Part shown: one piece after another, positions 6,688-63,397 of the stretch
Layout of the letters: each line of letters opens with the position of its first letter
Numbering within the stretch: position 1 is the first letter of the stretch
Origin: an uncultured Faecalibacterium sp.
Lineage (GTDB): Bacteria; Bacillota; Clostridia; Oscillospirales; Acutalibacteraceae
NCBI GenBank assembly: GCA_964480405.1
Contig: CAYZOU010000005.1
Span: forward strand, 39,117-103,116
Length of the DNA: 64,000 bases
Direction: 5' to 3'
Program-made: the position numbers and the translations under genes
The notes under the pieces: model-generated
Told to the model about the DNA's origin: nothing
Databases searched by the model: none
Seen by the model: the letters and a program-made list of their open reading frames with translations, nothing else

Positions 6688-6871
6688 TAAACTTCCTCCT
6701 AAACATATGTAATTACAAAGCGCATAACTGATAAAACGACTGTTTTTTTGCGCACAACTTCATGATATATTGATGATTATAACATACATAAACTGAAATA
6801 TCAATAATATAAATTAAAAACTTTATTTGAATTTCATATACATTTTTGAGTATTTTGACGATTAAAACATA

Positions 6872-7999: not shown

Positions 8000-8002
8000 A
8001 TT

Positions 8003-9256: not shown

Positions 9257-9327
9257 TCAAAACACGACCTTTCAACCTTAGATGTTGTATTCTATGCCGA
9301 AAAATCGCTTTAAGTGATTGTTTGCGT

Positions 9328-10452: not shown

Positions 10453-10466
10453 ATATTTAACCTCGC

Positions 10467-11864: not shown

Positions 11865-11897
11865 GCTTATCCCTCCGATCGGATGTTAAGTTTAAAC

Positions 11898-12932: not shown

Positions 12933-12953
12933 TTGATCAAATCCTCTCTCGTT

Positions 12954-14396
12954 TTAGTTTTCCTTTTGCTTTTCGAGATACTCAGCGACCTTTTCTCTCT
13001 CATCATAATGTATTTTTTCTTTGCCGATTATCTGATAGGTCTCATGACCTTTTCCGGCAAGAAGTATTATATCATTTTCTTCGGCTATACTCAAGGCAAG
13101 CTCTATAGCTTGAGTTCTGTCAATTTTTACATATGTTTTGTTTGTGCTGCCCGTCATGCCGTCTAAGATATCGTTTATTATGCTTTCGGGGTCTTCCGTT
13201 CTCGGATTATCCGTTGTGACAACAGCTATATCCGAAAGCTCTGCGACGGTTCTGCCCATTATCGGACGCTTGGTTTTATCTCTGTCGCCGCCACAGCCGA
13301 ACACCGTTATAACTCTGCCCTTTTTGACCTCGTTGAGAGTTCTGAGAACATTCTCAAGTCCGTCCGGAGTATGCGCATAGTCAACTACGACACTGTAGGG
13401 CGTATCGGTATCCAAAACTTCAAACCTGCCCTTGACGCTTTTAAGCTTCGCCACATTGGCGATAACAGTGTCAAAGTCAAATCCGAGTTCGAGCATACAA
13501 CCGATAACAGCCATTGAGTTATAGACGGAAAACATTCCCGGTGTCTCATAGTGTACTCTGCCTATCATTGAAATGCCGACTATCGCATAATCGACACCTT
13601 TCGGGCTGAGCTTCACTGTTTTCGCCGTGAGATCGGCGGCGTTCTGACTTGCCGAATATGTCGTGACCTTGCAGTCGGTGTCTTCGAGTAATGCTTTATA
13701 GGAAGCATCGTCTATGTTTATTATCGCTTTATCGCAGTTTAAGAAAAGCTTTCTCTTAGCCGCAATATAGTTTTCCATTGAGCCGTGATAGTCGAGATGA
13801 TCCTGCGTAAGATTTGTGAAAACGGCAACGTCAAAATGACAGCCGTCGGTGCGGCATTGGTCAAGAGCCTGTGATGAGACCTCCATAACGCAATATTCCG
13901 TTCCGCACTCGACCATTTCGCTGAACATTCTGTTAAGCTCGAACGCATCGGGGGTAGTCAAAACGCTGTCGGTTTTCTTTGAGCCGATAATATTTGATAC
14001 CGTTCCGATAAGTCCCGCCTTTTTGCCTAATGAAATCAGCAGGTTATATATAAGCGTTGAAACAGTTGTTTTTCCGTTCGTTCCCGTAACGCCTATGAGG
14101 GTCATTCGCTCAGACGGCTGTGAGAAAAACAGACTGCACATCTTCGCATATTCGCTTCGTGTGTTACCGACGATAACTTGATTTCGGCAGCCGACATCTC
14201 TTTGAGCGATTATCGCCGCCGCACCCATTTCCTCCGCCTTTTTGGCTGCCGTATGTCCGTCAAAGTTTTTGCCCTCGATACAGACAAAAGCGCAGCCTTG
14301 CTTACATTTTCTCGAATCATCGGTTATATATGAAATTTCAACGTCCTGCCAGTCGCTTTTTGCGGCTGTGTTTCTTAAAAGATAAGATAATTTCAT
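12954..14396 (-). CDS. murE: UDP-N-acetylmuramoyl-L-alanyl-D-glutamate--2,6-diaminopimelate ligase
   Basis: Mur ligase P-loop GVTGTNGKTT and a DNPR motif (TTDNPRTEDP) typical of DAP-adding MurE. Confidence 0.9.
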   Translation of the reverse strand: MKLSYLLRNTAAKSDWQDVEISYITDDSRKCKQGCAFVCIEGKNFDGHTAAKKAEEMGAAAIIAQRDVGCRNQVIVGNTRSEYAKMCSLFFSQPSERMTLIGVTGTNGKTTVSTLIYNLLISLGKKAGLIGTVSNIIGSKKTDSVLTTPDAFELNRMFSEMVECGTEYCVMEVSSQALDQCRTDGCHFDVAVFTNLTQDHLDYHGSMENYIAAKRKLFLNCDKAIINIDDASYKALLEDTDCKVTTYSASQNAADLTAKTVKLSPKGVDYAIVGISMIGRVHYETPGMFSVYNSMAVIGCMLELGFDFDTVIANVAKLKSVKGRFEVLDTDTPYSVVVDYAHTPDGLENVLRTLNEVKKGRVITVFGCGGDRDKTKRPIMGRTVAELSDIAVVTTDNPRTEDPESIINDILDGMTGSTNKTYVKIDRTQAIELALSIAEENDIILLAGKGHETYQIIGKEKIHYDEREKVAEYLEKQKEN

Positions 14397-14472
14397 TCTA
14401 TGACCTCCGCTTTATTTTGCTTTTTCTTATCTCGGTTTGCTTTTTTATGTACACCCGAGTGTGTACCGAATA

Positions 14473-16725: not shown

Positions 16726-16780
16726 CTCTCAGTTTCCGATTTATCTCTAAATTATTTTTTCCTTTTATAGCAGCACAAGG

Positions 16781-16820
16781 CGAAAAGACACATAATTCTA
16801 TGTGAGCTTTTTCGCCTTAT
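16781..16820 (-). other. Long hairpin between ftsL and the PBP gene (possible internal attenuator or processing site)
   Basis: aaggcgaaaa...ttttcgcctt with an inner cacata/tatgtg pairing. Confidence 0.4.
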
Positions 16821-16832
16821 CCGTCATTTTTT

Positions 16833-17294
16833 TCAGTTAGTTTCCTCACCGGAGGACACTATAACTTTATTTTCCTTTGCTATTTTAACATACTCTATAT
16901 CGCCTGCGCCGAGCTTGACTAAGCCCAACTTTTCAACGGCGATCTTTTCGATCTGTTCGAGTGAAACCATACCGTTAAGCTCCATTGATAACCTTGAGTT
17001 ATCGCTTTGGACCATTTCGTATTTCTCGGACAGGTCACTGTATTTTCTGTCTGCGGCATCGCAACTGCAATAGCCGTAAATATTCATAAAACAAAGCGCT
17101 GACAAAACAACTCCCGCAATTACCGTTCTTGTCAACCTGACGGCGACTGTTTTCTTTTCGGTTTTAATTTCCTCTTTTGTTTTCTCCCTCGGTGTCAGCT
17201 TTTTAAGTTCAACTGTTTTTTGCTGTTCGCTTCTTCGTCTTTCAGCCGGAGAAAAAGCGTCAAAGTCAAACTCCTGACCGGCAGGTAAAGCCAT
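16833..17294 (-). CDS. ftsL: Cell division protein FtsL-like (septum formation initiator)
   Basis: Single TM followed by a coiled coil (SDLSEKYEMVQSDNSRLSMEL). Located between rsmH and the PBP gene. Confidence 0.75.
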   Translation of the reverse strand: MALPAGQEFDFDAFSPAERRRSEQQKTVELKKLTPREKTKEEIKTEKKTVAVRLTRTVIAGVVLSALCFMNIYGYCSCDAADRKYSDLSEKYEMVQSDNSRLSMELNGMVSLEQIEKIAVEKLGLVKLGAGDIEYVKIAKENKVIVSSGEETN

Positions 17295-17330
17295 GATATT
17301 TCCTCCCTTTTATTGTATTTACCGTTTTTC

Positions 17331-18263
17331 TCAATTATGTAGTTTTTCTATAGCTCTGAGCGTTGCGCTCCTTGATCTCGGATTGTTTTTAAGCTCCTCG
17401 TCGCTTGCCGTTATAAACTTAAACGGCAACTCACCTCTCGGTGTTCTTCCGCAGACGCACACCGGAAATTCTTTTGGGCAAATACAGCCTTCACAGAATT
17501 TCGCAAATCTTCTCTTGACCATTCTGTCTTCAAGGGAATGGAAGGTGATGATGCTGAGTCTGCCGCCGATTTTCAGCGCATCGAACATATCGTCTAACGT
17601 GGCGTCAAGTTTATCAAGCTCGCCGTTGACCTCTATTCTGAGCGCCTGAAATGTTCGTCTCGCCGGATGTCCTCCGCTTCTTCTCGCCGAAGCGGGAATG
17701 GAATATTTCACTATTTCGGCAAGTTTCAAGGTCGAATCTATCGGATTTATCGCTCGCTCCTTGACAATGTTTCTCGCTATGGAACGGGCGAATTTTTCTT
17801 CGCCGTATGTCTGAATTATTCTCGCAAGTTCTCTTTCACCGAGCTTATTGACAAGGTCGGCGGCCGTCGGTCCCGATTGGCTCATTCTCATATCGAGCGG
17901 CGCATCATTGTGGACCGAGAAGCCTCTTTCCGCTGTGTCGAGCTGGTGGGAGCTTACGCCGAGGTCGGCGAGTACCCCATCGACATATTCTATATCAAGC
18001 TTCGATAATATTTCTTTAAGCTGTGAGAAGTTCTTTTGAACCACAGTCACTCTCTTATCGCCGCTGAAACGCTCCTTTAACACGGCGATCGCATCGGGGT
18101 CTTGGTCAATGGCGATAAGCCGACCGTTTTCACCCAGCCTTGCCAAAACGGCTCTTGAGTGACCTCCGCCGCCGGCAGTGCAATCGACGTATATGCCGTC
18201 CTTTTTCACATTGAGCGAGTCAACGGTCTCGTTCAAAAGAACGCTTATATGTTCAAAGTTCAT
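17331..18263 (-). CDS. rsmH: 16S rRNA (cytosine1402-N4)-methyltransferase
   Basis: HISVLLNE and DCTAGGGGHS motifs, with mraZ upstream. Confidence 0.95.
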   Translation of the reverse strand: MNFEHISVLLNETVDSLNVKKDGIYVDCTAGGGGHSRAVLARLGENGRLIAIDQDPDAIAVLKERFSGDKRVTVVQKNFSQLKEILSKLDIEYVDGVLADLGVSSHQLDTAERGFSVHNDAPLDMRMSQSGPTAADLVNKLGERELARIIQTYGEEKFARSIARNIVKERAINPIDSTLKLAEIVKYSIPASARRSGGHPARRTFQALRIEVNGELDKLDATLDDMFDALKIGGRLSIITFHSLEDRMVKRRFAKFCEGCICPKEFPVCVCGRTPRGELPFKFITASDEELKNNPRSRSATLRAIEKLHN

Positions 18264-18270
18264 TTTTTAT

Positions 18271-18759
18271 TTAATCCCCGTTTTTGAGAGCGTTAGCCTC
18301 TCTCATTCTCTTTTCGACGTTCGCTTCTCTCATGAGCGCATCAACGTCTTTGACTCTTCTGACGTTTTCTTTCGATTTTTCTCTGTATGCCTTGAAGCTG
18401 TCTTCGTTCCAAATTTCAACGTGGCGTCCCATACCTATTACTAAAGCCGAGTCTGTCAAGCCGACACTTTCTCTCTGTTCGACGGGTATGGAAATTCTTC
18501 CCTGATTGTCTATCGTCACATCATAGGTCTCAGCGAAAAGGTCGGTCAATATATCATCTTCACCGAGCATATCGCCTATTCTGCTCTCAAGCTCGGCAAA
18601 CTTTCTTTCAAACTCCGCTACTGAATAGCACTGTATGCAGTTTTTATTTTCGGAAACGGTGAGAATAAACTCGCTTCCGAGTGAATCTCTGAATTTAGCA
18701 GGGACAAACATTCTGTTTTTCTGATCAAGCTTGTTGATATATTTGCCTGTGAGCAACAT
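18271..18759 (-). CDS. mraZ: Transcriptional regulator MraZ
   Basis: Two SpoVT/AbrB-like halves (DQKNRMFVPAKFR, DNQGRISIP). First gene of the dcw cluster. Confidence 0.92.
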   Translation of the reverse strand: MLLTGKYINKLDQKNRMFVPAKFRDSLGSEFILTVSENKNCIQCYSVAEFERKFAELESRIGDMLGEDDILTDLFAETYDVTIDNQGRISIPVEQRESVGLTDSALVIGMGRHVEIWNEDSFKAYREKSKENVRRVKDVDALMREANVEKRMREANALKNGD

Positions 18760-18858
18760 GACCCTGCCTCCTCTCTAATTCACCTTTTTCCACCTTTTTA
18801 GTTTACTGTTACACCATTATAGCTTGTACAGCCACCAATGTCAATAGTAATACTTCAC

Positions 18859-18908
18859 AAAAAATAAAAAAATTGCGGAGACGACTCTTTGGAATCATCT
18901 CCGCAAAA
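18859..18908 (-). terminator. Intrinsic terminator after nrdR
   Basis: Stem tgcggaga/tctccgca followed on the minus strand by a long T-tract. Confidence 0.8.
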
Positions 18909-18925
18909 TTGCGTTTTATATTCTG

Positions 18926-19384
18926 TTATTTCTTTTCGCCTAAAAGCTTTGCAAGCTCGTCCATAAAGGTGTTAATATCCTTGAACTGCCTGTAAACAGA
19001 GGCGAAACGGACATAGGCGACTTCGTCAATATCCTTGAGCTTTTCCATCGTCAGCTCACCTATGTGTACCGATGTGACCTCTCTGTCGAGTGAATTTTGA
19101 AGCTCCGCCTCAATGTCGCTGACCGCCTTTTCAATCGTGTCAAGCGCAACCGGTCTCTTTTCGCAAGCTCTGAGCATACCGTTGAAAAGCTTTTCTCTGT
19201 TGAACTGTTCTCTCGACTTATCCTTTTTCACAACGATTATCGGCACATTTTCAATGACCTCATAGGTCGTGAATCTCTTGCCGCAGCTCATACATTCACG
19301 GCGGCGTCTGATTCTTTCGCTTTCGTCGGTCGGTCTTGAATCAATGACCTTGCTTTCGGTGTAACCGCAAAACGGACACTTCAT
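18926..19384 (-). CDS. nrdR: Transcriptional repressor NrdR
   Basis: Zinc ribbon MKCPFCG...[12 protein letters not shown] plus an ATP-cone domain. Confidence 0.95.
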
Positions 19385-22683: not shown

Positions 22684-22841
22684 TTCAAGATCTCCTTACA
22701 CACCGCTGTAAATCATAAATTTCGCATTGGTGTATTCATACCTGTTAAATATATATTGTATAATTTCACCGGCGAATTGTCAAGCAATAGAAAAAAGTCG
22801 ACAAATTTCTGCTTTTTTTCTTAAAATTTTACAATTTTAAC

Positions 22842-22880
22842 AAACAAATGTTTGCTTTTTATGAAATGGTATGTTATACT
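22842..22880 (+). promoter_or_regulatory. lexA promoter with an overlapping LexA-box-like palindrome
   Basis: Palindrome cAAACAAATGTTTg (22842-22853) overlaps -35 TTGCTT (22852-22857). A 17-nt spacer leads to the extended -10 TGTTATACT (22872-22880). Confidence 0.6.
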
Positions 22881-22956: not shown

Positions 22957-23550
22957 ATGAATGATTTAAGTGAAAACCAAGTTAGGATACTTGAATTTTT
23001 AAAAGAAAGACTTTCCGTGACAAATGTTCCGCCCTCAGTCAGAGAAATATGCTCAGCTGTCGGCTTAAAATCGACATCTTCGGTTCAGAACAATCTCGAT
23101 GCTCTTGAAGAAAAGGGCTATATTCAGCGTGACCCCATGCTCAAGCGTTCTATCAGAATAATGGGTCAAGCCGAGAATGTTCACCATGTTCCTCTTTTGG
23201 GTACGGTTACCGCCGGTGCGCCTATTCTCGCCGTTGAACAAATCGAGTGCTATCTCCCCTATTCCGGTTACGTTTCAAGCGACAAGCCTCTTTTCGCTCT
23301 GAGAGTCAGAGGTGAAAGTATGCTCAACGCCGGAATATTTGACGGAGACATAATCTTCGCCGAGCAGACACCCGTCGCAAGAAACGGTGATACGGTAGTC
23401 GCTCTCATAGGAGAAGAAGCCACCGTCAAGACATTTTATAAGGAAAACGGTCATTTTCGTTTACAGCCGGAAAATGATACATATGAGCCGATAATCGTTG
23501 ACGAGGTTGCGATATTGGGTAAGGTCGTTGCGGTTTTGAGATATCTTTGA
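22957..23550 (+). CDS. lexA: LexA repressor
   Basis: Winged HTH (VREICSAVGLKSTSSVQNNLDALEEKGYI), AG cleavage site (VTAGAP) and S24 peptidase Ser/Lys motifs (GESMLNAGI; ATVKTF). Start chosen at ATG 22957 with a GGAGGA RBS. Confidence 0.95.
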   Translation: MNDLSENQVRILEFLKERLSVTNVPPSVREICSAVGLKSTSSVQNNLDALEEKGYIQRDPMLKRSIRIMGQAENVHHVPLLGTVTAGAPILAVEQIECYLPYSGYVSSDKPLFALRVRGESMLNAGIFDGDIIFAEQTPVARNGDTVVALIGEEATVKTFYKENGHFRLQPENDTYEPIIVDEVAILGKVVAVLRYL

Positions 23551-25785: not shown

Positions 25786-25796
25786 AAATATCACCT

Positions 25797-29119: not shown

Positions 29120-29232
29120 AAAACAGAGTAGGTTTGAGTGCGTTAAGTTCCGTCTGAACGGGGAGTTGTCAGATGGCCGAAAACGGTTCAGCATAGTTGA
29201 GCCCTTGCGATACTCTTTCCGCATCCCGCTGT
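29120..29232 (+). promoter_or_regulatory. THF (tetrahydrofolate) riboswitch aptamer
   Basis: Conserved THF-motif blocks are recognisable: cAGAGUAGg...GUGCGUUAAGU...GAACGGGGAGUUG...CGAUACUCU...CCGCAUCCCGCUG. It lies upstream of a FolT-type ECF S-component gene. Confidence 0.85.
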
Positions 29233-29259
29233 AAACAAGAAAGATCGGACAAAATATCC

Positions 29260-29991: not shown

Positions 29992-31449
29992 TTAAGGCTG
30001 ATTGACAACACCGATAAAGAGCGGCGTATCACCTAAGCCCGTTATCACGAACAGAAACGGTCTGTTAAGATCAAAGTCGACCTCATCTTGCGGCATACCT
30101 GCTCCTGCGTAATCAAGGCTCATATATGCCGATGCGGTTATCCCCTGCTCGTCAATTGCAACTCTCGCTGCGTGTTCGGCTGATGTTATCGCTAAAGCTT
30201 CGTCCGTCAAAGGCGAAAAGTCCGACTTATTAAAATCAAATATATCTTCAACACCGACCTTTTTAAGATTCTCCGTCAGGTCAACATTTGACATTATATC
30301 AAACTTCGGAACGGATAAATTTATCAGCGGATACGCTGTATTCTTATATTCGCCGTCTCCTATCATTTTTAAAGCGTCACCTTTTTGCAATAACTCCTCT
30401 GTTGTCACTCCCTCATCGGGAAGAATTAACCACATATTGCCGCTCTCCGATAACGACAATGTGACAGCGGCAAATCCGTCTCCCCAATAATAGCTTCCGA
30501 GCATTGACCTATGCATAAAATCGCAGTTTATGTCGCCGCTTTTAGCGTGGAAAGCTTCCTCATATGTGTTTTCCGATGAAAATTCATCTTGCCATCTGAC
30601 TTGATAATTTATCGTCGATGTCAGATTCATTACGGTCTGAGGCGAAAATTTAAGATTATCTGCGCTCTCCTTTAAAAGACCGCCTGTCTGAGCGTTGACC
30701 CATTCCTGTCTTGCCTTGTTGAAATTTTCATCTGTCATGTTCCCCGAAAATGATGAAGCGTAATAGTTTTCGGCAACCGTTTTGAGCGTATCCTCTTTAA
30801 AATCGCTGTAGCTGTCACTGAGCCATAACGAATTCGCAAGTACACATAAACCTGTTTTGTCGTCTTTATACTGTGCGTTCCATATCTCGTTGGCTGTCGT
30901 TCTCACATTTTCGATTTTGTCCGAACCCAAAAGCTTCAATATCTGCTCTCGGCTTTCACCGTCCGTTGTCTCGGCAAGTATGCTGAGTGCAAAATAAACA
31001 TTCAGCGGAGAGTATACTTTGTTTTCGCCGTTCGAGTCCAATATCTCCTTTGCGGTGCTTTGACAAAAGTCGATCATTTTGTCGGAATACTTTCTCGCTG
31101 TCTGTATATTTTCACGTCTAACATCAAACCATGCATCATACTGCTCATCGTCAGTGCTGAATATATCGGGGTATTCTGCCGCTTCGGGATAAACTGCTTT
31201 TGCAAGCAAATATTTTGAGCCTATGGATAACACTCCGCTGTTTGAGCCGTCCGATGCGTTATTCATCGGCAAATATCTCGGAACAAAGACTATACCCGTT
31301 ACGATTAAGCTGATACACGCTGCCGCCGCAACGAGCTTCACCCAAAGTCTTGACTTCTTTGCGGCTTTTCCTTTCCTGAGCTTTTCGGCGTCGGAAATAA
31401 GCTTGTCGTCAATATGGCTCATCGAGTCCATGAAATCATCGCTTTTCAT
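29992..31449 (-). CDS. Membrane-anchored serpin-domain protein, putative anti-sigma factor
   Basis: Short N-terminal segment, then one TM (LWVKLVAAAACISLIVTGIVFV). The C-terminal part has serpin hallmarks: SPLNVYFALSILAETTDGESREQIL, a hinge-like EQGITASAY, and NRPFLFVITG...PLFIGVVNQP. The start overlaps the sigma gene stop (ATGA). Confidence 0.8.
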   Translation of the reverse strand: MKSDDFMDSMSHIDDKLISDAEKLRKGKAAKKSRLWVKLVAAAACISLIVTGIVFVPRYLPMNNASDGSNSGVLSIGSKYLLAKAVYPEAAEYPDIFSTDDEQYDAWFDVRRENIQTARKYSDKMIDFCQSTAKEILDSNGENKVYSPLNVYFALSILAETTDGESREQILKLLGSDKIENVRTTANEIWNAQYKDDKTGLCVLANSLWLSDSYSDFKEDTLKTVAENYYASSFSGNMTDENFNKARQEWVNAQTGGLLKESADNLKFSPQTVMNLTSTINYQVRWQDEFSSENTYEEAFHAKSGDINCDFMHRSMLGSYYWGDGFAAVTLSLSESGNMWLILPDEGVTTEELLQKGDALKMIGDGEYKNTAYPLINLSVPKFDIMSNVDLTENLKKVGVEDIFDFNKSDFSPLTDEALAITSAEHAARVAIDEQGITASAYMSLDYAGAGMPQDEVDFDLNRPFLFVITGLGDTPLFIGVVNQP

Positions 31450-35473: not shown

Positions 35474-35968
35474 ATGTCGAAATTGAATATAGTTTTAGTC
35501 GAGCCCGAAATTCCGCAGAATACGGGAAACATCGCACGTACCTGCGCCGCAACGGGAGCGGCTCTCCACATCATAAAGCCCATGGGCTTCAGCGTTGACG
35601 ACAGATATTTAAAGCGAGCGGGGCTCGACTACTGGCATCTGCTTGATATTACTTATTACGAGTCGCTCGAACACTTTTTCTCTCAGGTACACGGAGAATT
35701 CTTCTATTTCACAACGAAAGCCCTTAACCGACACTCCGATATAAGCTATCCCGAAAACAGCTATCTCTTTTTCGGCAAAGAGACTAAGGGCTTGCCCGAA
35801 AGGCTTTTAAAAAATAATCCCGATCGCTCAGTTAGAATACCGATGATTGATGAATCGAGAAGTCTCAATCTTTCAAACTCTGTGGCTATCGGTGTTTATG
35901 AGGTTTTGAGACAGTGGGATTATCCCGATTTGCTTTGTAAAGGTGAACTGCATAACTTAAAATGGTGA
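35474..35968 (+). CDS. trmL: tRNA (cytidine/uridine(34)-2'-O)-methyltransferase TrmL (SpoU/TrmH family)
   Basis: NIVLVEPEIPQNTGNIARTCAATGAALHII and C-terminal SLNLSNSVAIGVYE. Confidence 0.88.
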   Translation: MSKLNIVLVEPEIPQNTGNIARTCAATGAALHIIKPMGFSVDDRYLKRAGLDYWHLLDITYYESLEHFFSQVHGEFFYFTTKALNRHSDISYPENSYLFFGKETKGLPERLLKNNPDRSVRIPMIDESRSLNLSNSVAIGVYEVLRQWDYPDLLCKGELHNLKW

Positions 35969-35978
35969 ACATTTGTTC
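35967..35978. promoter_or_regulatory. Perfect LexA (Cheo-type) box GAACATTTGTTC
   Basis: Exact GAAC-N4-GTTC palindrome, 10 nt upstream of the -35 of the following promoter. It overlaps the trmL stop codon. Confidence 0.65.
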
Positions 35979-35988
35979 GAAAAAACTA

Positions 35989-36017
35989 TTGACAACTTAA
36001 AATTTCGCTCCTATAAT
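35989..36017 (+). promoter_or_regulatory. Consensus sigma-A promoter of the phage-like operon
   Basis: TTGACA, exactly 17 nt, TATAAT. Confidence 0.8.
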
Positions 36018-36023
36018 ATAAAT

Positions 36024-36150
36024 GTGGGCTGCACGGAGCCTGCATTTAGGGTGCATATCAACCGATCGCACGGGGTCGGTGCGTACCCGAAAAGACGGAA
36101 GTCAACTAAAAAACAGCTTTCACAAGGATTTGTGGAGGCTGTTAATTATT
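36024..36150 (+). promoter_or_regulatory. Structured 5' leader with two GCACGG-loop hairpins and a terminator-like hairpin
   Basis: Hairpin gggcu-GCACGG-agccu. A gggugc/gcguaccc stem encloses accgauc-GCACGG-ggucggu. Then aacagc..cacaa-ggat-ttgtg..gctgtt is followed by AAUUAUUUUA. Confidence 0.45.
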
Positions 36151-36168
36151 TTAGGAAAAGGAGAAAAC

Positions 36169-37323
36169 ATGGATTACAAGTTAAATATTTCATCACTCGA
36201 AACGCAAGTCGTCGAAGTCAAGCAGTTCGAGCATAACGTGACAAAGGTCTCGGCAACATTCAATGCCGAGGATATTCACGAGGATCTCATCGACCTCACG
36301 CCCTGCATTTTGCTGTCCTTCGGCGAGAAAATCACCAAGGATAACGGCTTGAGCTACATCATCGCCGACAACACAGCCGGCATAAGCTGGCGGATCTCAC
36401 AGGAGTGTACTCAAAAGGCGGGTACATATTTCGCCCAGTTCGCATTCATCGACAAGGACGAAACCATTAAGGCGTACACGGACAAATTCATTTTCAGGGT
36501 CTTGCCGTCGGTGGACATTCAAAAAGCGGTATTTGAATATAAGCCGAGATTCCTCGAAGCATTTTGGAACAAGATCGTCGACAAAATCAGCGAAATGCTG
36601 CCCAAAAAGGTCAGCGAGCTCGAAAACGATGCGGAGTATATCAGCACAACAAACACTCTGTCGGAATATGCTAAAACGACGGAGGTCAACAAGGCGCTCG
36701 AAAGCTACAGCACAACTGCGGAAATTGACGAAAAGCTCACCGACTATGCCACCCACGGCGACACTACCTCGGAAATATATGAATTTTACAGAACGAGGAA
36801 CGCTCTATACACTGCAACTTGCAATGTTCCGCACAAGGTCCAAGAGACGACAATGCTCGGTATGACATTCATTCCCGATTCGACATCGACCTACTTTCAG
36901 AGCATACTCATTGACAAGTTTTCCGATTTGACAAATTTCAAGGTCTCCGACTTTATAATAAACATTTACACAATGGAAATCAAATCAACGGTTTCCGCTA
37001 CTGTGAAGGTTGAAGTCAATGTCGGAAGCTCCGGGTCGGGCATTCTCGTCTTCACCAATGCCGATGTGCTTGTGAACGATGAGCCTTCAAATGCTTTCAT
37101 ATCTTATGAAAATGTGCTGGGCGTTCCCCGTGTCAGATACAGCAGGCTGAAGACAAACGTGGGCATCATTCCCATTTCTTCAAAGAGCAGATATCTCGGC
37201 ATAACCACTCCGCCGTATATAAAGAATATCAAGATCACGTTCGTGCCGACAGATCCGACAGCACCGACGACCAACTTTCTGTCCAGCTTTCAGATCAAGG
37301 TGTCGGGCAAAAAAATAAACTAA
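36169..37323 (+). CDS. Phage tail-fibre / baseplate (BppU-like) receptor-binding-type protein
   Basis: The N-terminal domain pattern resembles BppU_N-type domains, from my recollection. It is followed by the ELENDAEYIS motif and Y-x-x-T-x-E-[VI]-[ND] repeats typical of Firmicutes phage fibres. Holin and lysin genes follow. Start at 36169 with an AAAGGAG RBS. Confidence 0.5.
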   Translation: MDYKLNISSLETQVVEVKQFEHNVTKVSATFNAEDIHEDLIDLTPCILLSFGEKITKDNGLSYIIADNTAGISWRISQECTQKAGTYFAQFAFIDKDETIKAYTDKFIFRVLPSVDIQKAVFEYKPRFLEAFWNKIVDKISEMLPKKVSELENDAEYISTTNTLSEYAKTTEVNKALESYSTTAEIDEKLTDYATHGDTTSEIYEFYRTRNALYTATCNVPHKVQETTMLGMTFIPDSTSTYFQSILIDKFSDLTNFKVSDFIINIYTMEIKSTVSATVKVEVNVGSSGSGILVFTNADVLVNDEPSNAFISYENVLGVPRVRYSRLKTNVGIIPISSKSRYLGITTPPYIKNIKITFVPTDPTAPTTNFLSSFQIKVSGKKIN

Positions 37324-37339
37324 ATCAGGAGGGATAACA

Positions 37340-37549
37340 ATGACAGATTTTATTAAGGCAAGACCGTGGCTCTACCGTGGATTGCGAACATTTTTTCAGG
37401 CTTTTTTAAGTACACTTGCAGGTCAGCTGCTTCTCGTAGATCAAAGCGGAATTGATGAAAAGCTGATATTTTCGGTTCTCGTTTCGTCAATGGCGGCGGG
37501 GCTTGCGGCGCTCATGAACACCGATTCGGCGTCAAAAGCCGATGACTAA
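37340..37549 (+). CDS. Holin-like protein, two TM helices
   Basis: 69 aa with TM1 RTFFQAFLSTLAGQLLLV and TM2 LIFSVLVSSMAAGLAALM, then a charged C-terminus. Located immediately upstream of the endolysin. Confidence 0.55.
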   Translation: MTDFIKARPWLYRGLRTFFQAFLSTLAGQLLLVDQSGIDEKLIFSVLVSSMAAGLAALMNTDSASKADD

Positions 37550-37576
37550 TAATATATTATGAGGAAGGGAGATAAT

Positions 37577-38260
37577 ATGTCAGTAAAAAAATATTCTTTG
37601 AAAAAAGACGGAGATAAGAGCTTATCAAAGCATTTTAAAGTCAGAGAGTTCAGAAGCAAGGACGGCGCTGACAAAATATATATCGAAACAAATCTTATCG
37701 AAGCTCTCGAATCAGTACACAGTCATTTTGACTGCTCGAAAATAATAATCATATCGGGCTACCGCACACCGAGTCACGACAAAGCGGTCGGCGGAAGCGG
37801 CGGCGGAAGTCACACTAAGGGCAAAGCCGCCGACTTTGTGGCATACGACAAAAACGGCAAAAAGATCTCATCAAAGGAGGTCTCGCTGTATCTTGAAGAT
37901 ATAGGCGTATTGGGCATAGGCTACCGCTCCGGCGGCATCGAGACCAGCACTCATTTTGACGTCGGATACCGAAAGAGAAAGTGGTACGGCGACGAAAAAA
38001 AGAGCACCGCCACCTCTATCGGCTCAAGCTTCTACAACTATTTCGGTATAAAGTATAAGCAAAACATGGCGATAGCGTCGGTCAATATAAGAAAAGAGCC
38101 GTCACTTTCCGGAACGAAGGTCGGCTTATTGAAGATCGGAGAAAAAATCTCTGTCTCAAACTGTGACAAGATAAGCTCCGACGGCTATGTTTGGAGCAAG
38201 GTTAAGCTCGGAAATGCTCACTACTGGATAGCCGACCGATATTTGAAGGAGGTCAAGTGA
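37577..38260 (+). CDS. Endolysin: M15-family zinc peptidase (YcbK/VanY-like) with a C-terminal SH3-like cell-wall-binding domain
   Basis: HTKGKAADF and STHFDV metal-ligand motifs. The C-terminal MAIASVNIRKEPSLSGTKVGLLKIGEKISV...WSKV is SH3b-like. RBS is GGAAGGGAG. Confidence 0.8.
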   Translation: MSVKKYSLKKDGDKSLSKHFKVREFRSKDGADKIYIETNLIEALESVHSHFDCSKIIIISGYRTPSHDKAVGGSGGGSHTKGKAADFVAYDKNGKKISSKEVSLYLEDIGVLGIGYRSGGIETSTHFDVGYRKRKWYGDEKKSTATSIGSSFYNYFGIKYKQNMAIASVNIRKEPSLSGTKVGLLKIGEKISVSNCDKISSDGYVWSKVKLGNAHYWIADRYLKEVK

Positions 38261-41334: not shown

Positions 41335-41412
41335 CAAACGGTGGATTTGTCAAGGGGGGCCGGGTGGGCGGGTGGGCGGGCGCTAAGCGATGAGCGTGCG
41401 CCCCCGCTGATG
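41335..41412. repeat. GC-rich repeat-related segment
   Basis: ggccgggtgggcgggtgggcgggcgc...gcgcccccgctgat shares the cagcgggg(c)gc block with family A-prime. Confidence 0.5.
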
Positions 41413-41451
41413 AAATTACGGTAATGACGGGGCTGAAAGGCTGATCGGGCC

Positions 41452-41685
41452 TTATGCGACGAAGTTGCACTCTTTGCGATTTATCTCAGGTCGTTTTACA
41501 TTTACCTGATTTGCCGAGCGTTCGACAACGTGTATATTCTTTTCTCTCTTAGCTTGCGCTCTGCTGTCTCTTATGACCTCGATGATCTTATCTTCAAGGT
41601 CGATGAGTCTGTCCTCATTTTTTAATGCCCATATTATGAGCGGTGTGAAAACCGAAACGAAAGCTATAAATAAACCTAATGACAT
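41452..41685 (-). CDS. 77-aa N-terminally anchored membrane protein under LexA-box control (candidate SOS cell-division inhibitor)
   Basis: TM helix LGLFIAFVSVFTPLIIWAL followed by a charged 55-aa tail. RBS is AGGAGG. Three LexA boxes lie in its promoter region. Confidence 0.65.
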   Translation of the reverse strand: MSLGLFIAFVSVFTPLIIWALKNEDRLIDLEDKIIEVIRDSRAQAKREKNIHVVERSANQVNVKRPEINRKECNFVA

Positions 41686-41706
41686 AGTAATTACCTCCTA
41701 AAATTA

Positions 41707-41801
41707 GAACATTTGTTCCTTACAAGTGCTATTATATCAGATTTTTTACGTTTGTCAATACAAATGTTCGATAAATTTCGAGTTTTTTCGAAAATTTGTT
41801 C
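41707..41801 (-). promoter_or_regulatory. SOS-type promoter: TTGACA-16 nt-TATAAT flanked and overlapped by three LexA boxes
   Basis: On the minus strand, -35 TTGACA is at 41753-41758 and -10 TATAAT at 41731-41736. The boxes are GAACAAATGTTC (41707-41718, perfect), GAACATTTGTAT (41758-41769) and GAACAAATTTTC (41790-41801). Confidence 0.75.
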
Positions 41802-41913
41802 GATAGCTTGCAATGCCCTTGTCTTAATATTGCTATGCTCGCTTTCGAAAATTTATGTCCTATTTCATTTGACAGGTCAATTATAGCTTAATATCTGTCC
41901 GAAAAATCGGTCT

Positions 41914-41946
41914 CATTAAAAAAAGCACGGCTTTCACCGTGCTTTT
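41914..41946 (-). terminator. Terminator after the metallophosphoesterase gene
   Basis: aaaagcacgg-ctttca-ccgtgctttt with flanking A/T tracts. Confidence 0.8.
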
Positions 41947-58662: not shown

Positions 58663-59676
58663 TTATTGCTTATATTCCATTCCCAAATGCTCATAAGCTT
58701 GTGGGGTGGCTATTCTGCCCCTCGGAGTTCTTCCGAGGAATCCTATCTGCATGAGATAGGGCTCATAAACGTCCTCGATTGTTACAGCTTCCTCGCCTAT
58801 TGCGGCTGATATTGTTTCAAGTCCGACAGGACCTCCGTTATAGCTTTTTATCATTGTTGTCAAAAGCCGTCGATCCGTTGCGTCAAGACCCAATTCGTCT
58901 ATTTCCATTCTTCTCAAGGCAAGCTCTGCCGCTTCCTTATCTATAATGCCGTTGCCCACGACTTGAGCGAAATCTCTCGCTCTTTTTAAAATTCTGTTGG
59001 CAATTCTCGGCGTACCTCGTGAACATTCGGCTATTTTTAATGCGCCTTTTTCATCAATGCCTATTCCGAGTATTGCCGCACTTCTTGTAACTATACGGCT
59101 GAGTTCTTCGGGAGTATAAAGTTCAAGTCTCATCACAACGCCGAATCTGTCACGAAGCGGCGCAGAGAGCTGACCTGCTCTTGTTGTTGCGCCGACGAGA
59201 GTGAATTTCGGAAGGTCAAGTCTTATCGACCTTGCCGACGGGCCTTTTCCGATAATTATATCGAGCGCATTATCCTCCATAGCCGGATAAAGCACTTCCT
59301 CAACGCTTCTGTGAAGTCGGTGTATCTCATCGACGAAAAGCACGTCTCCCTCATTCAAGTTTGTCAAAAGCGCCGCAAGGTCTCCCTGCTTTTCTATCGC
59401 TGGACCCGATGTTACTCTCAGGTTGACATTCATCTCGTTGGCTATTATTCCGGCGAGTGTGGTTTTGCCTAAGCCCGGAGGCCCGTAAAGCAGAACATGA
59501 TCGAGGCTTTCGCCTCTTGAAACCGCCGCTTGAATATATATTTTTAAGTTTTCCTTAACCTTTTCCTGACCGATATAATCTTCAAATACCCTCGGTCGCA
59601 GTGAGGTTTCTATGTCGGCATCCTCTCGGGTATACTCCGTTGCCATTATTCTTTCTTCACTGTTAAAGTCATTCAT
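58663..59676 (-). CDS. ruvB: Holliday junction branch migration ATPase RuvB
   Basis: Walker [10 protein letters not shown], plus DEIHRL and the RuvB C-terminal winged helix. Confidence 0.96.
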
Positions 59677-59694
59677 CTTATGTTCTCCGATATT

Positions 59695-60285
59695 TTATAT
59701 GATCTTCAAGGCTTGTGTTATAAGCTTTTCTACGCTTTGGTTTTGATCGAGCTTTGAAACTGCAGATGCCGCTTCCGACTGTGAATAGCCTAACATCACA
59801 AGAGCCTCGACCGCTTCGCCTGTGTTCGTTTCGAGTGATAACTGCTCTCTCGCAGCCTGCTCACCCGTACCTATTGAAGCGCCTGTTTTCATCTTGTCTT
59901 TTAATTCCAGCACCACTCTTTGAGCTATTTTCGGGCCGACACCTTGAGCTTTTGTTATCGCCTTTATGTCGCCGCCCGATATCGCAAGCGCAAGCCTGTC
60001 GGGGGATAGCTGTGAAAGTATCGCAAGCGCCGCCTTTGGACCGACTCCGGAAACCGAGATCAGCATTTTGAAGCAATCAAGCTCGCTTTCATCGTAAAAT
60101 CCGAACAGCTCAAGCGCATCCTCTCTGACCGACAGATGAGTGTAGAGTGTGACGTTGCCCTTTTTATCGGAAAGCTCGTTTAAGGTGGTGAGCGTTACGG
60201 CGCATCTGAAAGCCACACCGCCGCATGATATTGCCACCGAAGAAGAATCTCTGTATACAATTTCTCCCGTCAAGCTGTAAAACAT
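59695..60285 (-). CDS. ruvA: Holliday junction DNA helicase subunit RuvA
   Basis: MFYSLTGEI start and HhH motifs (VSGVGPKAALAIL, AQGVGPKIAQRVV). The ORF-track N-terminal extension overlaps ruvC. Confidence 0.93.
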   Translation of the reverse strand: MFYSLTGEIVYRDSSSVAISCGGVAFRCAVTLTTLNELSDKKGNVTLYTHLSVREDALELFGFYDESELDCFKMLISVSGVGPKAALAILSQLSPDRLALAISGGDIKAITKAQGVGPKIAQRVVLELKDKMKTGASIGTGEQAAREQLSLETNTGEAVEALVMLGYSQSEAASAVSKLDQNQSVEKLITQALKII

Positions 60286-60287
60286 TT

Positions 60288-60797
60288 TCAAATTCCTTTC
60301 CTTATTGACATATGTGAAGAATAAAGCGATCCGCTTGCGTGAGCGTGACATATCGCCATCGCCAGCGCATCAGCCGTATCATCGGGCTTCGGCACTTTTT
60401 CGAGACCCAATATTCGCTTCGTCATTTCCTGAACTTGCTTTTTTTCCGCTCTGCCGTAACCGACAACACTCTGTTTGACTTGCAGAGGCGTATATTCGAA
60501 CACGGGCAGTCTGTTTTTCTGAGCCGCAAGCATCAGCACTCCCCTCGCCTGACTGACATCAATAACCGTTTTGGCGTTGTTGTTATAGAAAAGCTTCTCG
60601 ATGCTCATGACCTCGGGGTGATTTCTCATCACGATCTCATTGAAGCCGTCATATATTATCTCAAGTCTCTCGTTGAACGGAGTTTTCGCTTCTGTCGTTA
60701 TCGCTCCGTAATCAAGCGTTTTGAAGTGATTGTTTCGGTATTCAACGACACCGTAGCCGATAATCGCATATCCGGGGTCTATACCTAATATTATCAT
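60288..60797 (-). CDS. ruvC: Crossover junction endodeoxyribonuclease RuvC
   Basis: N-terminus IILGIDPGYAIIGYG and C-terminal DTADALAMAICH. Confidence 0.95.
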   Translation of the reverse strand: MIILGIDPGYAIIGYGVVEYRNNHFKTLDYGAITTEAKTPFNERLEIIYDGFNEIVMRNHPEVMSIEKLFYNNNAKTVIDVSQARGVLMLAAQKNRLPVFEYTPLQVKQSVVGYGRAEKKQVQEMTKRILGLEKVPKPDDTADALAMAICHAHASGSLYSSHMSIRKGI

Positions 60798-61536: not shown

Positions 61537-61590
61537 TTTACGACAATCCGACGAAAATCTGTAAAACTATAGCATTTTTCTGATGTATAT

Positions 61591-61971
61591 GTTATAATAA
61601 CCTCACGAAACACAGCCCAAATCATAGATTTGGTGTGTTTCGGAGAACATTGTTACATAAATTCGCTGAGGTAATGCGGCTAAAGCCGCTATTTTATGGC
61701 ATTCGCCGGAATTTATGTTATAATAACCTCACGAAAGTCCAACCAAATCGAAGATTTGGGGACTTTCGGAGAACATTGTTACACAAACTCACAGAGGTAA
61801 AGTGGCGTAAACGCCACATTTAATGGCATACGCCGAGAGTTTGTGTTATAATAACCTCACGAAACACAGCCCAAATCATAGATTTGGTGTGTTTCGGAAA
61901 ACATTGTTACATAAATTCGCTGAGGTAAAGCGGCTAAAGCCGCTATTTTATGGCATTCGCCGGAATTTATG
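61591..61971 (+). repeat. Tandem array of 3 copies of the ~127-bp structured unit. Each carries an extended -10 (TGTTATAAT), a long hairpin and a terminator-like hairpin.
   Basis: Unit starts (gttataataacctcacgaaa) are at 61591, 61717 and 61845. Units 1 and 3 are nearly identical. Unit 2 differs at paired positions in all three stems. Confidence 0.95.
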
Positions 61972-62038
61972 TAAGAATACTCAAGCGGTGATCAGCTCAC
62001 CTAAACAAAAAATTGTATATCTTTTACGGAGGCAAATC

Positions 62039-63397
62039 ATGAATGTTATAATTGTCGGTTGCGGCAAAGTCGGATCTACACTTGCCGACCGACTCGTCAG
62101 TGAAGGACACGATGTCAGCGTTGTTGACGTTGACTCCGAGGCAGTTGATAAAGTAACGAGCAGACTTGATGTTCTCGGTGTTGTCGGCAGTGGCTCTATT
62201 CACCAAGTGCAAGTCGATGCAGGCGTTAAAAATGCCGACCTATTCATAGCCGTAACTCCGAGCGATGAATTAAATCTGCTCTGCTGTCTGATGGCTAAAA
62301 GATCGGCTTCATGTAGCACTATAGCACGAGTCAGAAATCCCGACTATCTCTCTGAACGGGCTTTCATCAAGGAACGTCTCGGACTTTCAAGCATCATCAA
62401 TCCGGAATTTGAAGCGGCAGCCGAGATAAGCAGGCTTTTCCGCATACCCTCGGCAATAGAGGTCGACACCTTCGCCGACGGTAAGGTCGAGCTTTTGAAA
62501 GCGGCTTTGACCGAGAACTCACCTATCGTCGGAAAATCAATAATGAACGCTTTAGGCAAGATCAGCGGTAAGGTTCTTATTTGCGCAGTCGAAAGAAACG
62601 GAGACGTTGTTATCCCGAGCGGATCGTTTATACTTAAAGCCGGAGACCAGATCTCATTCCTTACCTCAAGAAGTGAAAGAGAAACCGTGTTCAAAAAGAT
62701 CGGACTTGAAAGCGGCAAGATCAAAAGAGTTGTTATCGTCGGCGGCGGAAAGATATCTTATTATCTTGTCAGAATGCTCGCCGAGGAAGGCTTCAAGGTC
62801 AAGGTCATAGAAAGAGACAAAGAAAGATGTGAGGTACTCTCCGAGCTTCTGCCGTCATCGGTCACCATCATAAACGGCGACGGAACTGACCAACAGCTTT
62901 TGTATGAGGAGGACATTGACAGCGCCGACGGCTTCGCTTCGCTGACAGATGTTGACGAGGAAAACATCATGCTTTCAATGTTCATGACGAAAAATTCCAA
63001 GGCGAAGGTCGTCACAAAAATAAACAGACAGAATTTTTCCGAGCTTATTGAAAATCTTAATATAGGCTCGGTCATATATCCGAAATTCATAACAGCCGAA
63101 ACCATAGTCAGCTATGCGAGAGCGCTGAAGAACTCTCAGGGCAGTAATGTTCAGACACTTTATAACATCGTCGATGACAAGGTCGAAGCACTCGAATTCA
63201 GAGCTAAAAGCGAATCCGAGGTGACGGGTGTTCATCTGAGCGATCTCGAGCTTAAAGACAATCTTCTTATCTGTTGCATAAGCAGAAACGGCAAGACTGT
63301 TATTCCGAACGGTCTGACGACTATCGAAGTCGGAGACACGGTCGTAGTCGTTACAACACAGAAAGGTCTCAACGACCTTAGCGACATTTTGAAGTGA
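62039..63397 (+). CDS. trkA: Trk/Ktr potassium uptake system NAD-binding subunit TrkA
   Basis: Two RCK_N/RCK_C pairs (IIVGCGKVGSTLA; VVIVGGGKISYYL). Start at ATG 62039 with a GGAGG RBS. The ORF-track N-terminal extension reads through the tandem repeats. Confidence 0.92.
   Translation: MNVIIVGCGKVGSTLADRLVSEGHDVSVVDVDSEAVDKVTSRLDVLGVVGSGSIHQVQVDAGVKNADLFIAVTPSDELNLLCCLMAKRSASCSTIARVRNPDYLSERAFIKERLGLSSIINPEFEAAAEISRLFRIPSAIEVDTFADGKVELLKAALTENSPIVGKSIMNALGKISGKVLICAVERNGDVVIPSGSFILKAGDQISFLTSRSERETVFKKIGLESGKIKRVVIVGGGKISYYLVRMLAEEGFKVKVIERDKERCEVLSELLPSSVTIINGDGTDQQLLYEEDIDSADGFASLTDVDEENIMLSMFMTKNSKAKVVTKINRQNFSELIENLNIGSVIYPKFITAETIVSYARALKNSQGSNVQTLYNIVDDKVEALEFRAKSESEVTGVHLSDLELKDNLLICCISRNGKTVIPNGLTTIEVGDTVVVVTTQKGLNDLSDILK

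Follow-up and report, generated by a model that had tools for sequence, protein, structure and literature searches.

The DNA analysed here, referred to below as the window, is a stretch of 64,000 nucleotides (nt) from an uncultured Faecalibacterium sp. (contig CAYZOU010000005.1 of assembly GCA_964480405.1), and the feature of interest is a gene on its minus strand that encodes a membrane protein of 77 amino acids (aa) and is preceded by three LexA boxes. An initial annotation, made from the sequence alone, had regarded this gene as a candidate SOS cell-division inhibitor and as the functional analogue of YneA and SosA in its clostridial lineage. Rather than a one-off of that lineage, the small protein is a member of a new, large and previously unannotated family, with the regulatory logic of the SOS division-inhibitor class. 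The features of the locus are as follows.

41452 to 41685, minus strand: open reading frame (ORF) of the small membrane protein, 77 aa, stop codon included, with its ATG at 41683 to 41685, as given in the ORF list
41694 to 41699, minus strand: Shine-Dalgarno sequence AGGAGG, the ribosome binding site (RBS), 8 nt 5′ of the ATG
41707 to 41718: LexA box 1, GAACAAATGTTC, a perfect GAAC-N4-GTTC palindrome between the -10 element and the RBS
41731 to 41739, minus strand: extended -10 element TGaTATAAT, with the hexamer TATAAT at 41731 to 41736 and TGn before it
41753 to 41758, minus strand: -35 element TTGACA, with a 16-nt spacer to the -10 element
41758 to 41770: LexA box 2, GAACATTTGTAT (41758 to 41769; longer form CGAACATTTGTAT), with a perfect left half-site and the right half GTAT
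41789 to 41802: LexA box 3, GAACAAATTTTC (41790 to 41801; as a 14-mer CGAACAAATTTTCG), with one mismatch
41810 to 41912, minus strand: conserved upstream module with a palindrome, a TATAAT and two conserved stretches, recognized by alignment of the upstream DNA of relatives
41918 to 41946, minus strand: intrinsic terminator of the upstream metallophosphoesterase gene, an inverted repeat and then a T run, which forms the 5′ boundary of the unit

The ORF, the RBS, both promoter hexamers and the three boxes all lie where the initial annotation had placed them. Box 2 had been described as overlapping the -35 element; the two are in contact but have only one base in common, so that box 2 abuts the -35 element rather than overlapping it broadly. 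Based on a promoter scan, the promoter of the small gene matches the consensus at 12 of 12 positions and has the extended -10 element in addition. As the terminator of the metallophosphoesterase gene lies upstream and a separate promoter serves the downstream rimI-tsaD genes, the small gene is a stand-alone unit, as had been claimed. No canonical terminator follows the small ORF in the window genome, and read-through into rimI-tsaD is therefore possible; such a terminator is present in the related loci L001, L007, L008 and L011. A strikingly C-rich tract (…GCGCCCGCCCACCCGCCCACCCGGCCCCCC), at 41355 to 41450, lies between the stop codon of the small ORF and the -35 element of the rimI-tsaD promoter and is common to locus L009.

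Box 1 starts 12 nt after the -10 element and, with transcription inferred to begin 7 nt past this element, would extend from about +7 to +18. It forms an inverted repeat with box 2. The centres of boxes 1 and 2 are 51 bp apart and those of boxes 2 and 3 are 32 bp apart, corresponding to ~5 and ~3 helical turns, respectively, and all three boxes are therefore on one face of the DNA. The 64-kb window has four perfect GAAC-N4-GTTC sites versus 1.2 expected, and three copies of the core AACAWWTGTT versus 0.45 expected, a number reached in 0 of 100 shuffles. The three AACAWWTGTT sites are in the lexA promoter (22843 to 22852), at 35968 and in box 1. The window includes a canonical lexA gene, located 18 kb from the small gene, and its operator:

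22957 to 23550, plus strand: lexA, with the Pfam domains LexA_DNA_bind and Peptidase_S24 and a match to the NCBIfam equivalog TIGR00498 (201 bits versus a cutoff of 111)
22841 to 22854: LexA autoregulatory operator CAAACAAATGTTTG, which overlaps the -35 element (TTGCTT) of the lexA promoter and served as the internal motif reference

The operator used in this lineage was derived independently from 80 metagenomic loci with a LexA 46 to 79% identical to that of the window, which provided 60 distinct upstream regions. The motif [CT][AG]AAC-AAAT-GTT[TC]G is present at 57 of these 60 related lexA promoters, and in 45 of the 60 it reads exactly CAAACAAATGTTTG. The 10-nt core of box 1, AACAAATGTT, is identical to the core of the operator at the window's lexA promoter and at the same 57 related lexA genes, with the same AAAT spacer. 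From this agreement of core and spacer, box 1 is predicted to be a consensus-strength form of this lineage's autoregulatory LexA operator, and it is very probable that LexA represses the maximal promoter of the small gene. At ruvCAB (58663 to 60797), no LexA box was seen.

To determine the extent of the family, one genome per species in GTDB r232 was scanned for the arrangement box 2, TTGACA, 16 nt, TAnnnT, 12 nt, box 1. The initial annotation had suggested that LexA-boxed small ORFs be sought in related genomes, and the same architecture is indeed present in 111 species genomes, where all 109 complete downstream ORFs encode one kind of protein, 72 to 111 aa in length with an N-terminal helix. 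A further 8 ORFs are cut by the end of the available sequence and have identical starts. Positions left free in the scan pattern are still highly conserved across species (TGcTATAAT, CTTGTAAA); the -10 element is ~90 to 99% conserved among the 113 species loci and the spacer of box 2, ATTT, also left free, is ~99% conserved. Box 1 is present in all 113 of these loci, by design of the search, and in 11 of 11 loci retrieved by protein only. In the reverse test, the divergent members P0098, P0115 and P0128, found by protein profile only, all have the LexA promoter, and so has every locus to which the first 15 homologues led. Box 3 is confined to the subfamily of the window (12 of 113 loci), a third full LexA-like site is present at varying positions in 28 of 113 loci, and an extra GTTCG half-site follows box 1 by 6 to 7 nt in 62 of 117 loci.

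Almost all carriers are labelled Acutalibacteraceae, Oscillospiraceae, Ruminococcaceae, Candidatus Fimenecus or Fimivicinus, or unclassified Clostridia. Loci L016, L080 and L084 come from genome records labelled Eggerthellaceae, Bacteroides faecis and Bacteroidaceae, respectively, and are probably mis-binned contigs, their protein and promoter being typical of the Clostridia family. A narrow-profile search of 1.8 billion representative sequences returned only 17 close relatives, and the wider family emerged only through the promoter-pattern scan. A profile search identified 261 clusters, of which every named one is a ‘hypothetical protein’ and none has a Pfam domain. No match was found in Pfam, NCBIfam or PADLOC for the window protein or the diverse members scanned, or in PHROGs for the window protein, and there are no relatives of the small protein among IMG/VR viral contigs, INPHARED phages or PLSDB plasmids.

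The small gene is always upstream of rimI-tsaD in the subfamily of the window, and its upstream neighbour varies among these relatives. As this synteny is limited to that subfamily (7 loci), rimI-tsaD was rejected as a functional partner. The neighbours in other subfamilies include genes for a 2-hydroxyacid dehydrogenase, obg, mini-RNase III and a radical-SAM protein, among others, with no conserved partner gene. Antisense promoters of the sigma-70 type, the type covered by the search, are present at 7 of 107 loci versus 8.2 in shuffled sequences, with no positional conservation. With housekeeping neighbours, no viral, phage or plasmid relatives and antisense promoters at chance frequency, the small gene behaves as a vertically inherited chromosomal gene, not as a mobile toxin-antitoxin or lysis module.

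The protein search identified 15 homologues, all 76 to 77 aa in length and 62 to 94% identical to the window protein. The transmembrane (TM) helix, the motif K-N-E-D-R-L-I-x-L-E-D-K-I and a C-terminal [FY]-V-A are invariant in all 15, and residues 57 to 73 are variable. The three boxes, the two hexamers and the RBS do not vary among 8 loci that encode proteins 62 to 69% identical to that of the window, and in the alignment of upstream DNA from 8 loci hardly any position varies over the ~110 bp between box 3 and the RBS. A regulatory block of 98 bp is ~93% identical where the coding sequence is ~68% identical, and the regulatory DNA is therefore under stronger constraint than the protein. Pairwise analysis gave a median ratio of nonsynonymous to synonymous change (dN/dS) of 0.145, with synonymous sites saturated, and constraint is strongest on the TM helix, residues 22 to 56 and the last three codons and relaxed in codons 57 to 74. 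The initial annotation had noted that an ORF not conserved in relatives would speak against its proposal; the ORF is conserved, and the small gene is a real protein-coding gene, translated under purifying selection. Together with the lexA operator in the window, its counterparts at 57 of 60 lexA promoters and the near-invariance of the small-gene promoter across 111 species, this selection lends strong in silico support to the half of the earlier proposal that concerned repression by LexA.

Synonymous change is itself suppressed at the start of the coding sequence, with a proportion of synonymous differences (pS) of 0.40 in codons 1 to 21 versus 0.86 in codons 22 to 56. The RBS and codons 1 to 7 (41664 to 41699) are invariant at synonymous positions across the subfamily of the window, as are the first 20 nt of the coding sequence, which indicates a nucleotide-level constraint on the translation-initiation region, beyond that on the protein sequence. 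The leader is short and AU-rich, and its folding together with the first codons is no more stable than that of shuffled sequences (z = -0.24), so the suppression of synonymous change fits selection for an open, AU-rich initiation region.

The protein itself is divided as follows, all on the minus strand.

Residues 3 to 21 (41623 to 41679), minus strand: TM helix, from the ORF translation
Residues 22 to 56 (41518 to 41622), minus strand: conserved juxtamembrane helix with E24, I28 and E31, from the family alignments
Residues 57 to 74, minus strand: variable disordered stretch, under relaxed constraint
Residues 75 to 77 (41455 to 41463), minus strand: invariant C-terminal F-V-A, from the alignment of homologues

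An N-terminal TM helix followed by a charged tail had been described in the initial annotation, and this description stands, with AlphaFold predicting a single helix at residues 3 to 49 of the window protein. The confidence of this model is lower than that obtained with a deep alignment for a member from Fimenecus, where the confidence score (pLDDT) exceeds 90 over residues 1 to 50 and the model has a TM helix at residues 3 to 24, a kink at 25, a second helix at 26 to 58 and a disordered tail. A Foldseek search of the PDB with this confident helix-kink-helix model returned no hits. M1, E31 and the final Ala are the sole invariant positions among 31 diverse members, with E24 and I28 nearly so, and an alignment of 55 members has the same E, I and E positions. 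Their i, i+4, i+7 spacing (E-x3-I-x2-E) aligns E24, I28 and E31 along a single side of a helix that follows directly on the membrane span. All 107 of the unique complete proteins called in the genome scan have Ala as their last residue, after V (73 proteins), I (16), A (9), S (5) or T (4). Such an invariant small-hydrophobic C-terminus would most simply be a degron and, if the tail is cytoplasmic, ClpXP-type recognition would be a natural candidate. Neither the window protein nor 9 diverse members gave a match to LysM or any other Pfam domain, whereas LysM was detected at 2.9e-08 in the lexA neighbour of locus L198, which served as a positive control.

Across the family, the number of Lys and Arg residues after the helix has a median of 16 and a minimum of 12, and the median before the helix is 0. 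The positive-inside rule predicts an N-out, C-in orientation for the family, and hence a cytoplasmic tail. In most subfamilies, the hydrophobic helix contains an acidic residue (Glu or Asp) and the tail is very basic and rich in Lys, Arg and Ala (e.g. KKAIAKKRAAQQARRRRE). The tail in the subfamily of the window is the least basic and is near-neutral, with 13 Lys or Arg and 11 Asp or Glu residues.

The DNA upstream of box 3 has conserved features of its own. In the upstream module, an imperfect palindrome, GACCG-N6-CGGAC (41897 to 41912), which reads GTCCG-N6-CGGAC in relatives, is followed by TATAAT (41880 to 41885) and then by TGTCAAATGAAA and GCATA..AATATTA. The module has no Rfam match and was not found elsewhere in the 64-kb window. 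Its TATAAT was considered as part of a second promoter, which is doubtful, as the promoter scan identified no usable -35 element. In 82 of 112 family loci, a palindrome, GTCC-N8-GGAC, occupies a fixed position upstream of box 2 (about -37 to -22 when counted from this box), and in the subfamily of the window it is shifted ~95 nt further upstream. Its fifth stem position sometimes covaries (GTCCG/CGGAC, GTCCC/GGGAC, GTCCA/TGGAC). The palindrome lacks a U-run, occurs nowhere else in the window and was rejected as a terminator; it could be the site of a third regulator, or a hairpin in RNA or DNA.

In part of the family, the LexA-boxed promoter is preceded by a second consensus promoter, ~70 to 100 nt upstream and in the same direction, with no ORF between the two. 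This is the case at 20 of 113 loci (~18%), and the spacer and upstream flank of the second promoter contain two 16-bp NrdR boxes separated by a 15- to 16-bp linker. NrdR is a nucleotide-sensing repressor of ribonucleotide reductase operons. The boxes match the conserved positions C4, A6, A8, T9, T11 and G13, with at least 11 of 12 positions matched and a fixed location at about -107 to -141 relative to box 2. Tandem boxes of this type, found at 20 of 113 loci, occur in shuffled sequences with a mean of 0.19 and a maximum of 2. The loci with NrdR boxes are L018, L019, L020, L026, L031, L035, L039, L046, L050, L063-L066, L071, L076, L081, L086, L102, L114, L117 and L123-L125, the last three having the same tandem arrangement. 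Pairs of NrdR operators are known from ribonucleotide reductase operons (PMC13584703, PMC4409342), and box positions and linker are alike in the 20 relatives, although the target here is not a ribonucleotide reductase gene. The only validated NrdR target of another kind that we found in the literature is topA in P. aeruginosa. In the NrdR-boxed species, the small gene appears to answer both to DNA damage and to deoxynucleoside triphosphate (dNTP) status, and this co-regulation would tie the family to replication stress.

The locus in the window has no NrdR site upstream of the small gene, even when only 9 of 12 conserved positions are required. The sole NrdR-like match in the window, at 25795, is a single box flanked by a NUDIX gene and a gene for a small exporter; NrdR control of the small gene in the window was rejected. 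The window does encode NrdR (18926 to 19384, minus strand), directly upstream of mraZ at the head of a division and cell-wall cluster (5407 to 19384), in which mraZ is followed by rsmH, an FtsL-like ORF, genes for an FtsI-type penicillin-binding protein and a Mur ligase, mraY, ftsW, murG, murA, ftsQ and ftsZ. The homologues of FtsW, FtsI, FtsQ and, weakly, FtsL to which the initial annotation had pointed as possible partners are therefore present, as is FtsZ.

Among the characterized division inhibitors, SosA of Staphylococcus aureus provides a close parallel. It is SOS-induced, and its conserved extreme C-terminus controls its proteolytic turnover (PMC6851548). The likeness extends to LexA control, a length of 77 aa, a TM helix at the N-terminus, conservation that is highest directly behind this helix, a variable middle, a conserved extreme C-terminus, the lack of a recognizable domain and occurrence in one lineage only. 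The two differ in that SosA is encoded divergently from lexA whereas the family gene is never beside lexA, and in that SosA's C-terminal portion has been determined experimentally to be extracellular and is removed by the extracellular protease CtpA (PMC6851548), whereas the family tail is predicted to be cytoplasmic, so that any protease of the family protein would be cytoplasmic, ClpXP for example. With Pfam, NCBIfam and profile searches, nothing outside the family was retrieved and no relationship in sequence to SosA was detectable; SosA was compared by its published description.

YneA, of Bacillus subtilis and Listeria, is an SOS division inhibitor with TM and LysM domains, and its TM helix targets FtsW (PMC13396833), a homologue of which is encoded in the window at 10467 to 11864. 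Like YneA, which is transient and toxic when over-made (PMC13396833), the family protein is a small bitopic protein controlled by several LexA boxes, but it lacks the defining extracellular LysM domain and its gene is not divergent from lexA. Since LysM and lexA adjacency were both looked for and neither was found, the small protein is not a member of the YneA family. The earlier view of the protein as an analogue of YneA and SosA needs correction as to its topology, which is predicted to be the opposite, and its location, which is not adjacent to lexA. Genes of the YneA type do occur in more distant Clostridia, where a TM plus LysM gene is divergent from lexA in 4 of 5 loci, versus 0 of 61 loci of the lineage of the window. 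In these four loci (L196-L199), LexA is about 50 to 54% identical to that of the window and the YneA-type genes encode proteins of 126 to 165 aa with a TM helix and LysM (PF01476) and have three LexA boxes, as exemplified by the L198 gene at 836 to 1216 on the minus strand. The divergent neighbour of lexA in the window encodes an ABC-3 permease.

SidA and DidA of Caulobacter, ChiZ of Mycobacterium and DivS of Corynebacterium are further damage-induced division inhibitors (PMC13396833, PMC4211646). They follow the logic proposed for the family, as lineage-specific small proteins that are induced by DNA damage and block late division, and differ in having no sequence or domain relationship with it. 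DidA is SOS-independent, ChiZ has a LysM domain and, to our knowledge, none of the four is NrdR co-regulated. TisB/IstR-1 and DinQ/AgrB of E. coli are similar to the family in that LexA-boxed genes encode small hydrophobic inner-membrane peptides. TisB and DinQ are peptides of ~27 to 29 aa with long structured leaders and a neighbouring antitoxin small RNA; the family proteins, in contrast, have 72 to 111 aa and a hydrophilic helix that is long and conserved, and their genes have an open leader and no conserved antisense promoter of the sigma-70 type. The family differs from the known class of SOS division inhibitors in its predicted inverted topology, its location away from lexA and, in part, its second, NrdR-boxed promoter.

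The window has another perfect LexA box, TGAACATTTGTTCG, at 35966 to 35979, with a core identical to that of box 1 and located 10 nt upstream of a consensus promoter (TTGACA at 35989 to 35994, a 17-nt spacer and TATAAT at 36012 to 36017). This box, like box 3, is followed by the 12-mer TTCGAAAAAACT. The promoter precedes a GC-rich leader of ~140 nt that has no Rfam match, an ORF of 384 aa (36169 to 37323) with no Pfam, PHROG, PADLOC or phage match, and an endolysin-like gene (37559 to 38260, phrog_894) for an M15 peptidase with an SH3 domain. The region from 35966 to 38260 is possibly a second SOS-controlled unit, and it was not detected by tblastn in the loci of relatives. Elsewhere, at 61588 to 61806, a 93-nt element occurs as two tandem copies (83% identical, 126 nt apart) upstream of a TrkA-type potassium-uptake gene (61823 to 63397). 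Each copy opens with TATGTTATAAT and contains a hairpin with the conserved inner stem CCAAATC-N3-GATTTGG, and the outer stems differ by compensatory changes (ACACA...TGTGT versus AGTCC...GGACT). The element has no Rfam match even at E values up to 1 and is a candidate cis-regulatory RNA. A tetrahydrofolate riboswitch (RF01831, 66.5 bits) at 29122 to 29233 precedes an ORF of 177 aa, and a bacterial serpin (PF00079, 485 aa) is encoded at 29992 to 31449.

Taken as a DNA-damage division inhibitor, a role to which we assign a probability of roughly 50%, the small protein would function as follows. In undamaged cells, LexA dimers bound to the three helically phased operators, with box 1 covering the start site, box 2 adjoining the -35 element and box 3 ~32 bp further upstream, would jointly silence a maximal sigma-A promoter. 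DNA damage would activate RecA, LexA would cleave itself and the promoter would fire, and the short unstructured leader and perfect Shine-Dalgarno sequence would then give a burst of the 77-aa protein. The N-terminal helix would insert into the membrane, with the tail most likely kept in the cytoplasm, and the juxtamembrane face of E24, I28 and E31 would engage a conserved cellular target, most likely a divisome component, delaying septation until repair is complete. With the C-terminal [FY]-V-A acting as a degradation tag, the block would be lifted quickly once LexA re-represses the gene.

This role is favoured because the LexA-regulated small bitopic proteins characterized in Gram-positive Bacteria, YneA, SosA and ChiZ, inhibit division, and because the small protein shares the layout of SosA almost point for point. 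It is favoured also because the gene is single, order-wide and non-mobile, because the lineage seems to have no classical YneA-type inhibitor beside lexA, and because NrdR co-regulation links the family to replication stress. Filamentation of a C. difficile lexA mutant is a further reason, although the report of that mutant names no division inhibitor (PMC4689574). Several observations weigh on the other side. None of the ~110 family loci has a LexA homologue next to the small gene. The search for a classical inhibitor covered the surroundings of lexA only, so that the lineage seems to lack one at the classical place. No recognizable domain, LysM included, was detected by Pfam or NCBIfam, and an acidic residue in the helix with a very basic tail is also seen in pore-forming toxins and holins. 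The predicted cytoplasmic tail is opposite to the extracellular active parts of YneA and SosA, and given this inverted topology a division inhibitor would have to act otherwise, through its TM helix or its cytoplasmic face. For the subfamily of the window, this topology is itself less certain than for the rest of the family as the tail is near-neutral.

Of the alternatives, it is very improbable that the boxes are not functional LexA operators and instead serve another regulator or reflect promoter architecture only, with the gene outside the SOS regulon. The right half of box 2 is degenerate and box 3 has a mismatch, and the GTCC-N8-GGAC palindrome and upstream module indicate that further regulators act at the locus, but box 1 is perfect and shares spacer and core with the lexA operators, boxes 1 and 2 occupy classic repressor positions, over the inferred start site and at the -35 element, and the window encodes a canonical LexA. 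An SOS-induced membrane-damaging peptide, either a depolarizing toxin of the TisB/DinQ type that causes dormancy or a holin-like permeabilizer that causes lysis or release, is a likelier alternative, though still an unlikely one; a toxin or holin-like peptide had been the fallback of the initial annotation. One hydrophobic helix with a charged tail is the general build of holins and many type I toxins, and the small protein has this build, often with an embedded Glu or Asp and usually with a basic tail. Very tight repression, with several operators on a consensus promoter, is as expected for a dangerous product, and a second LexA-boxed promoter (35967 to 36017) precedes the 384-aa ORF and the endolysin-like gene. 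The pair, however, gave no tblastn matches in the loci of relatives, where the small gene is conserved order-wide amid housekeeping genes, and a role as holin for this endolysin-like gene 3 kb away was therefore rejected as the ancestral role. The window protein has no match among PHROG holin families, nor have it and the members scanned a match among those of Pfam, and phage, plasmid and PADLOC relatives are likewise lacking. A type I toxin arrangement was also rejected, there being no conserved antisense promoter of the sigma-70 type, no structured leader that occludes the RBS and no Rfam family, and the family proteins are larger than typical type I toxins. The E-x3-I-x2-E face and the invariant C-terminus point to protein-protein recognition rather than to generic pore formation. 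As a membrane toxin, the small protein would be an SOS toxin without an antitoxin, inherited vertically and unusually widespread.

It is similarly doubtful that the protein is a LexA-controlled membrane adaptor with another role after damage, such as tethering DNA or the nucleoid, recruiting a repair, protease or replication factor, or modulating the envelope without division arrest. LexA regulation is well supported and does not point to a particular target, the Lys-, Arg- and Ala-rich tails, in our judgement, resemble nucleic-acid-binding tails, and dual LexA and NrdR control in 20 loci points to replication and dNTP status, not to division specifically. The subfamily of the window, however, has no net-basic tail and retains the TM helix, juxtamembrane face and C-terminus, so that tail basicity is not the seat of the conserved function; the neighbourhood has no conserved partner gene, and the precedent from characterized LexA-regulated small bitopic proteins in Gram-positive Bacteria is division inhibition. 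In a more elaborate and speculative scheme, improbable in its full form, the family is a replication-stress checkpoint effector of a new mechanistic type that, unlike YneA and SosA, acts from the cytoplasmic face of the membrane. Its acidic face would bind an early or cytoplasmic divisome component, or its basic tail would tether the nucleoid, LexA and, in some members, NrdR would act as independent repressors that report DNA damage and dNTP supply, respectively, the C-terminal degron would set its lifetime, and in a major order of gut Clostridia it would have taken the place of the YneA-type inhibitor.

One boxed ORF has led to a defined family with more than 260 protein clusters in at least 111 species, all annotated as hypothetical and without a domain. 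The three operators, the three-residue helical face, the invariant C-terminal tag and the cultured genera in the carrier family provide experimental handles. SOS-linked division arrest does occur in Clostridia, as documented by the C. difficile lexA mutant (PMC4689574), and we found no effector of such arrest described for Acutalibacteraceae or Oscillospiraceae, which are abundant and mostly uncultured gut anaerobes. If the proposed function is correct, the family would add a division inhibitor whose site of action is probably the cytoplasmic side, and such proteins are leads to vulnerable steps of the divisome. In some species, the NrdR regulon would then also reach beyond nucleotide reduction, with dNTP supply tied directly to the cell cycle.

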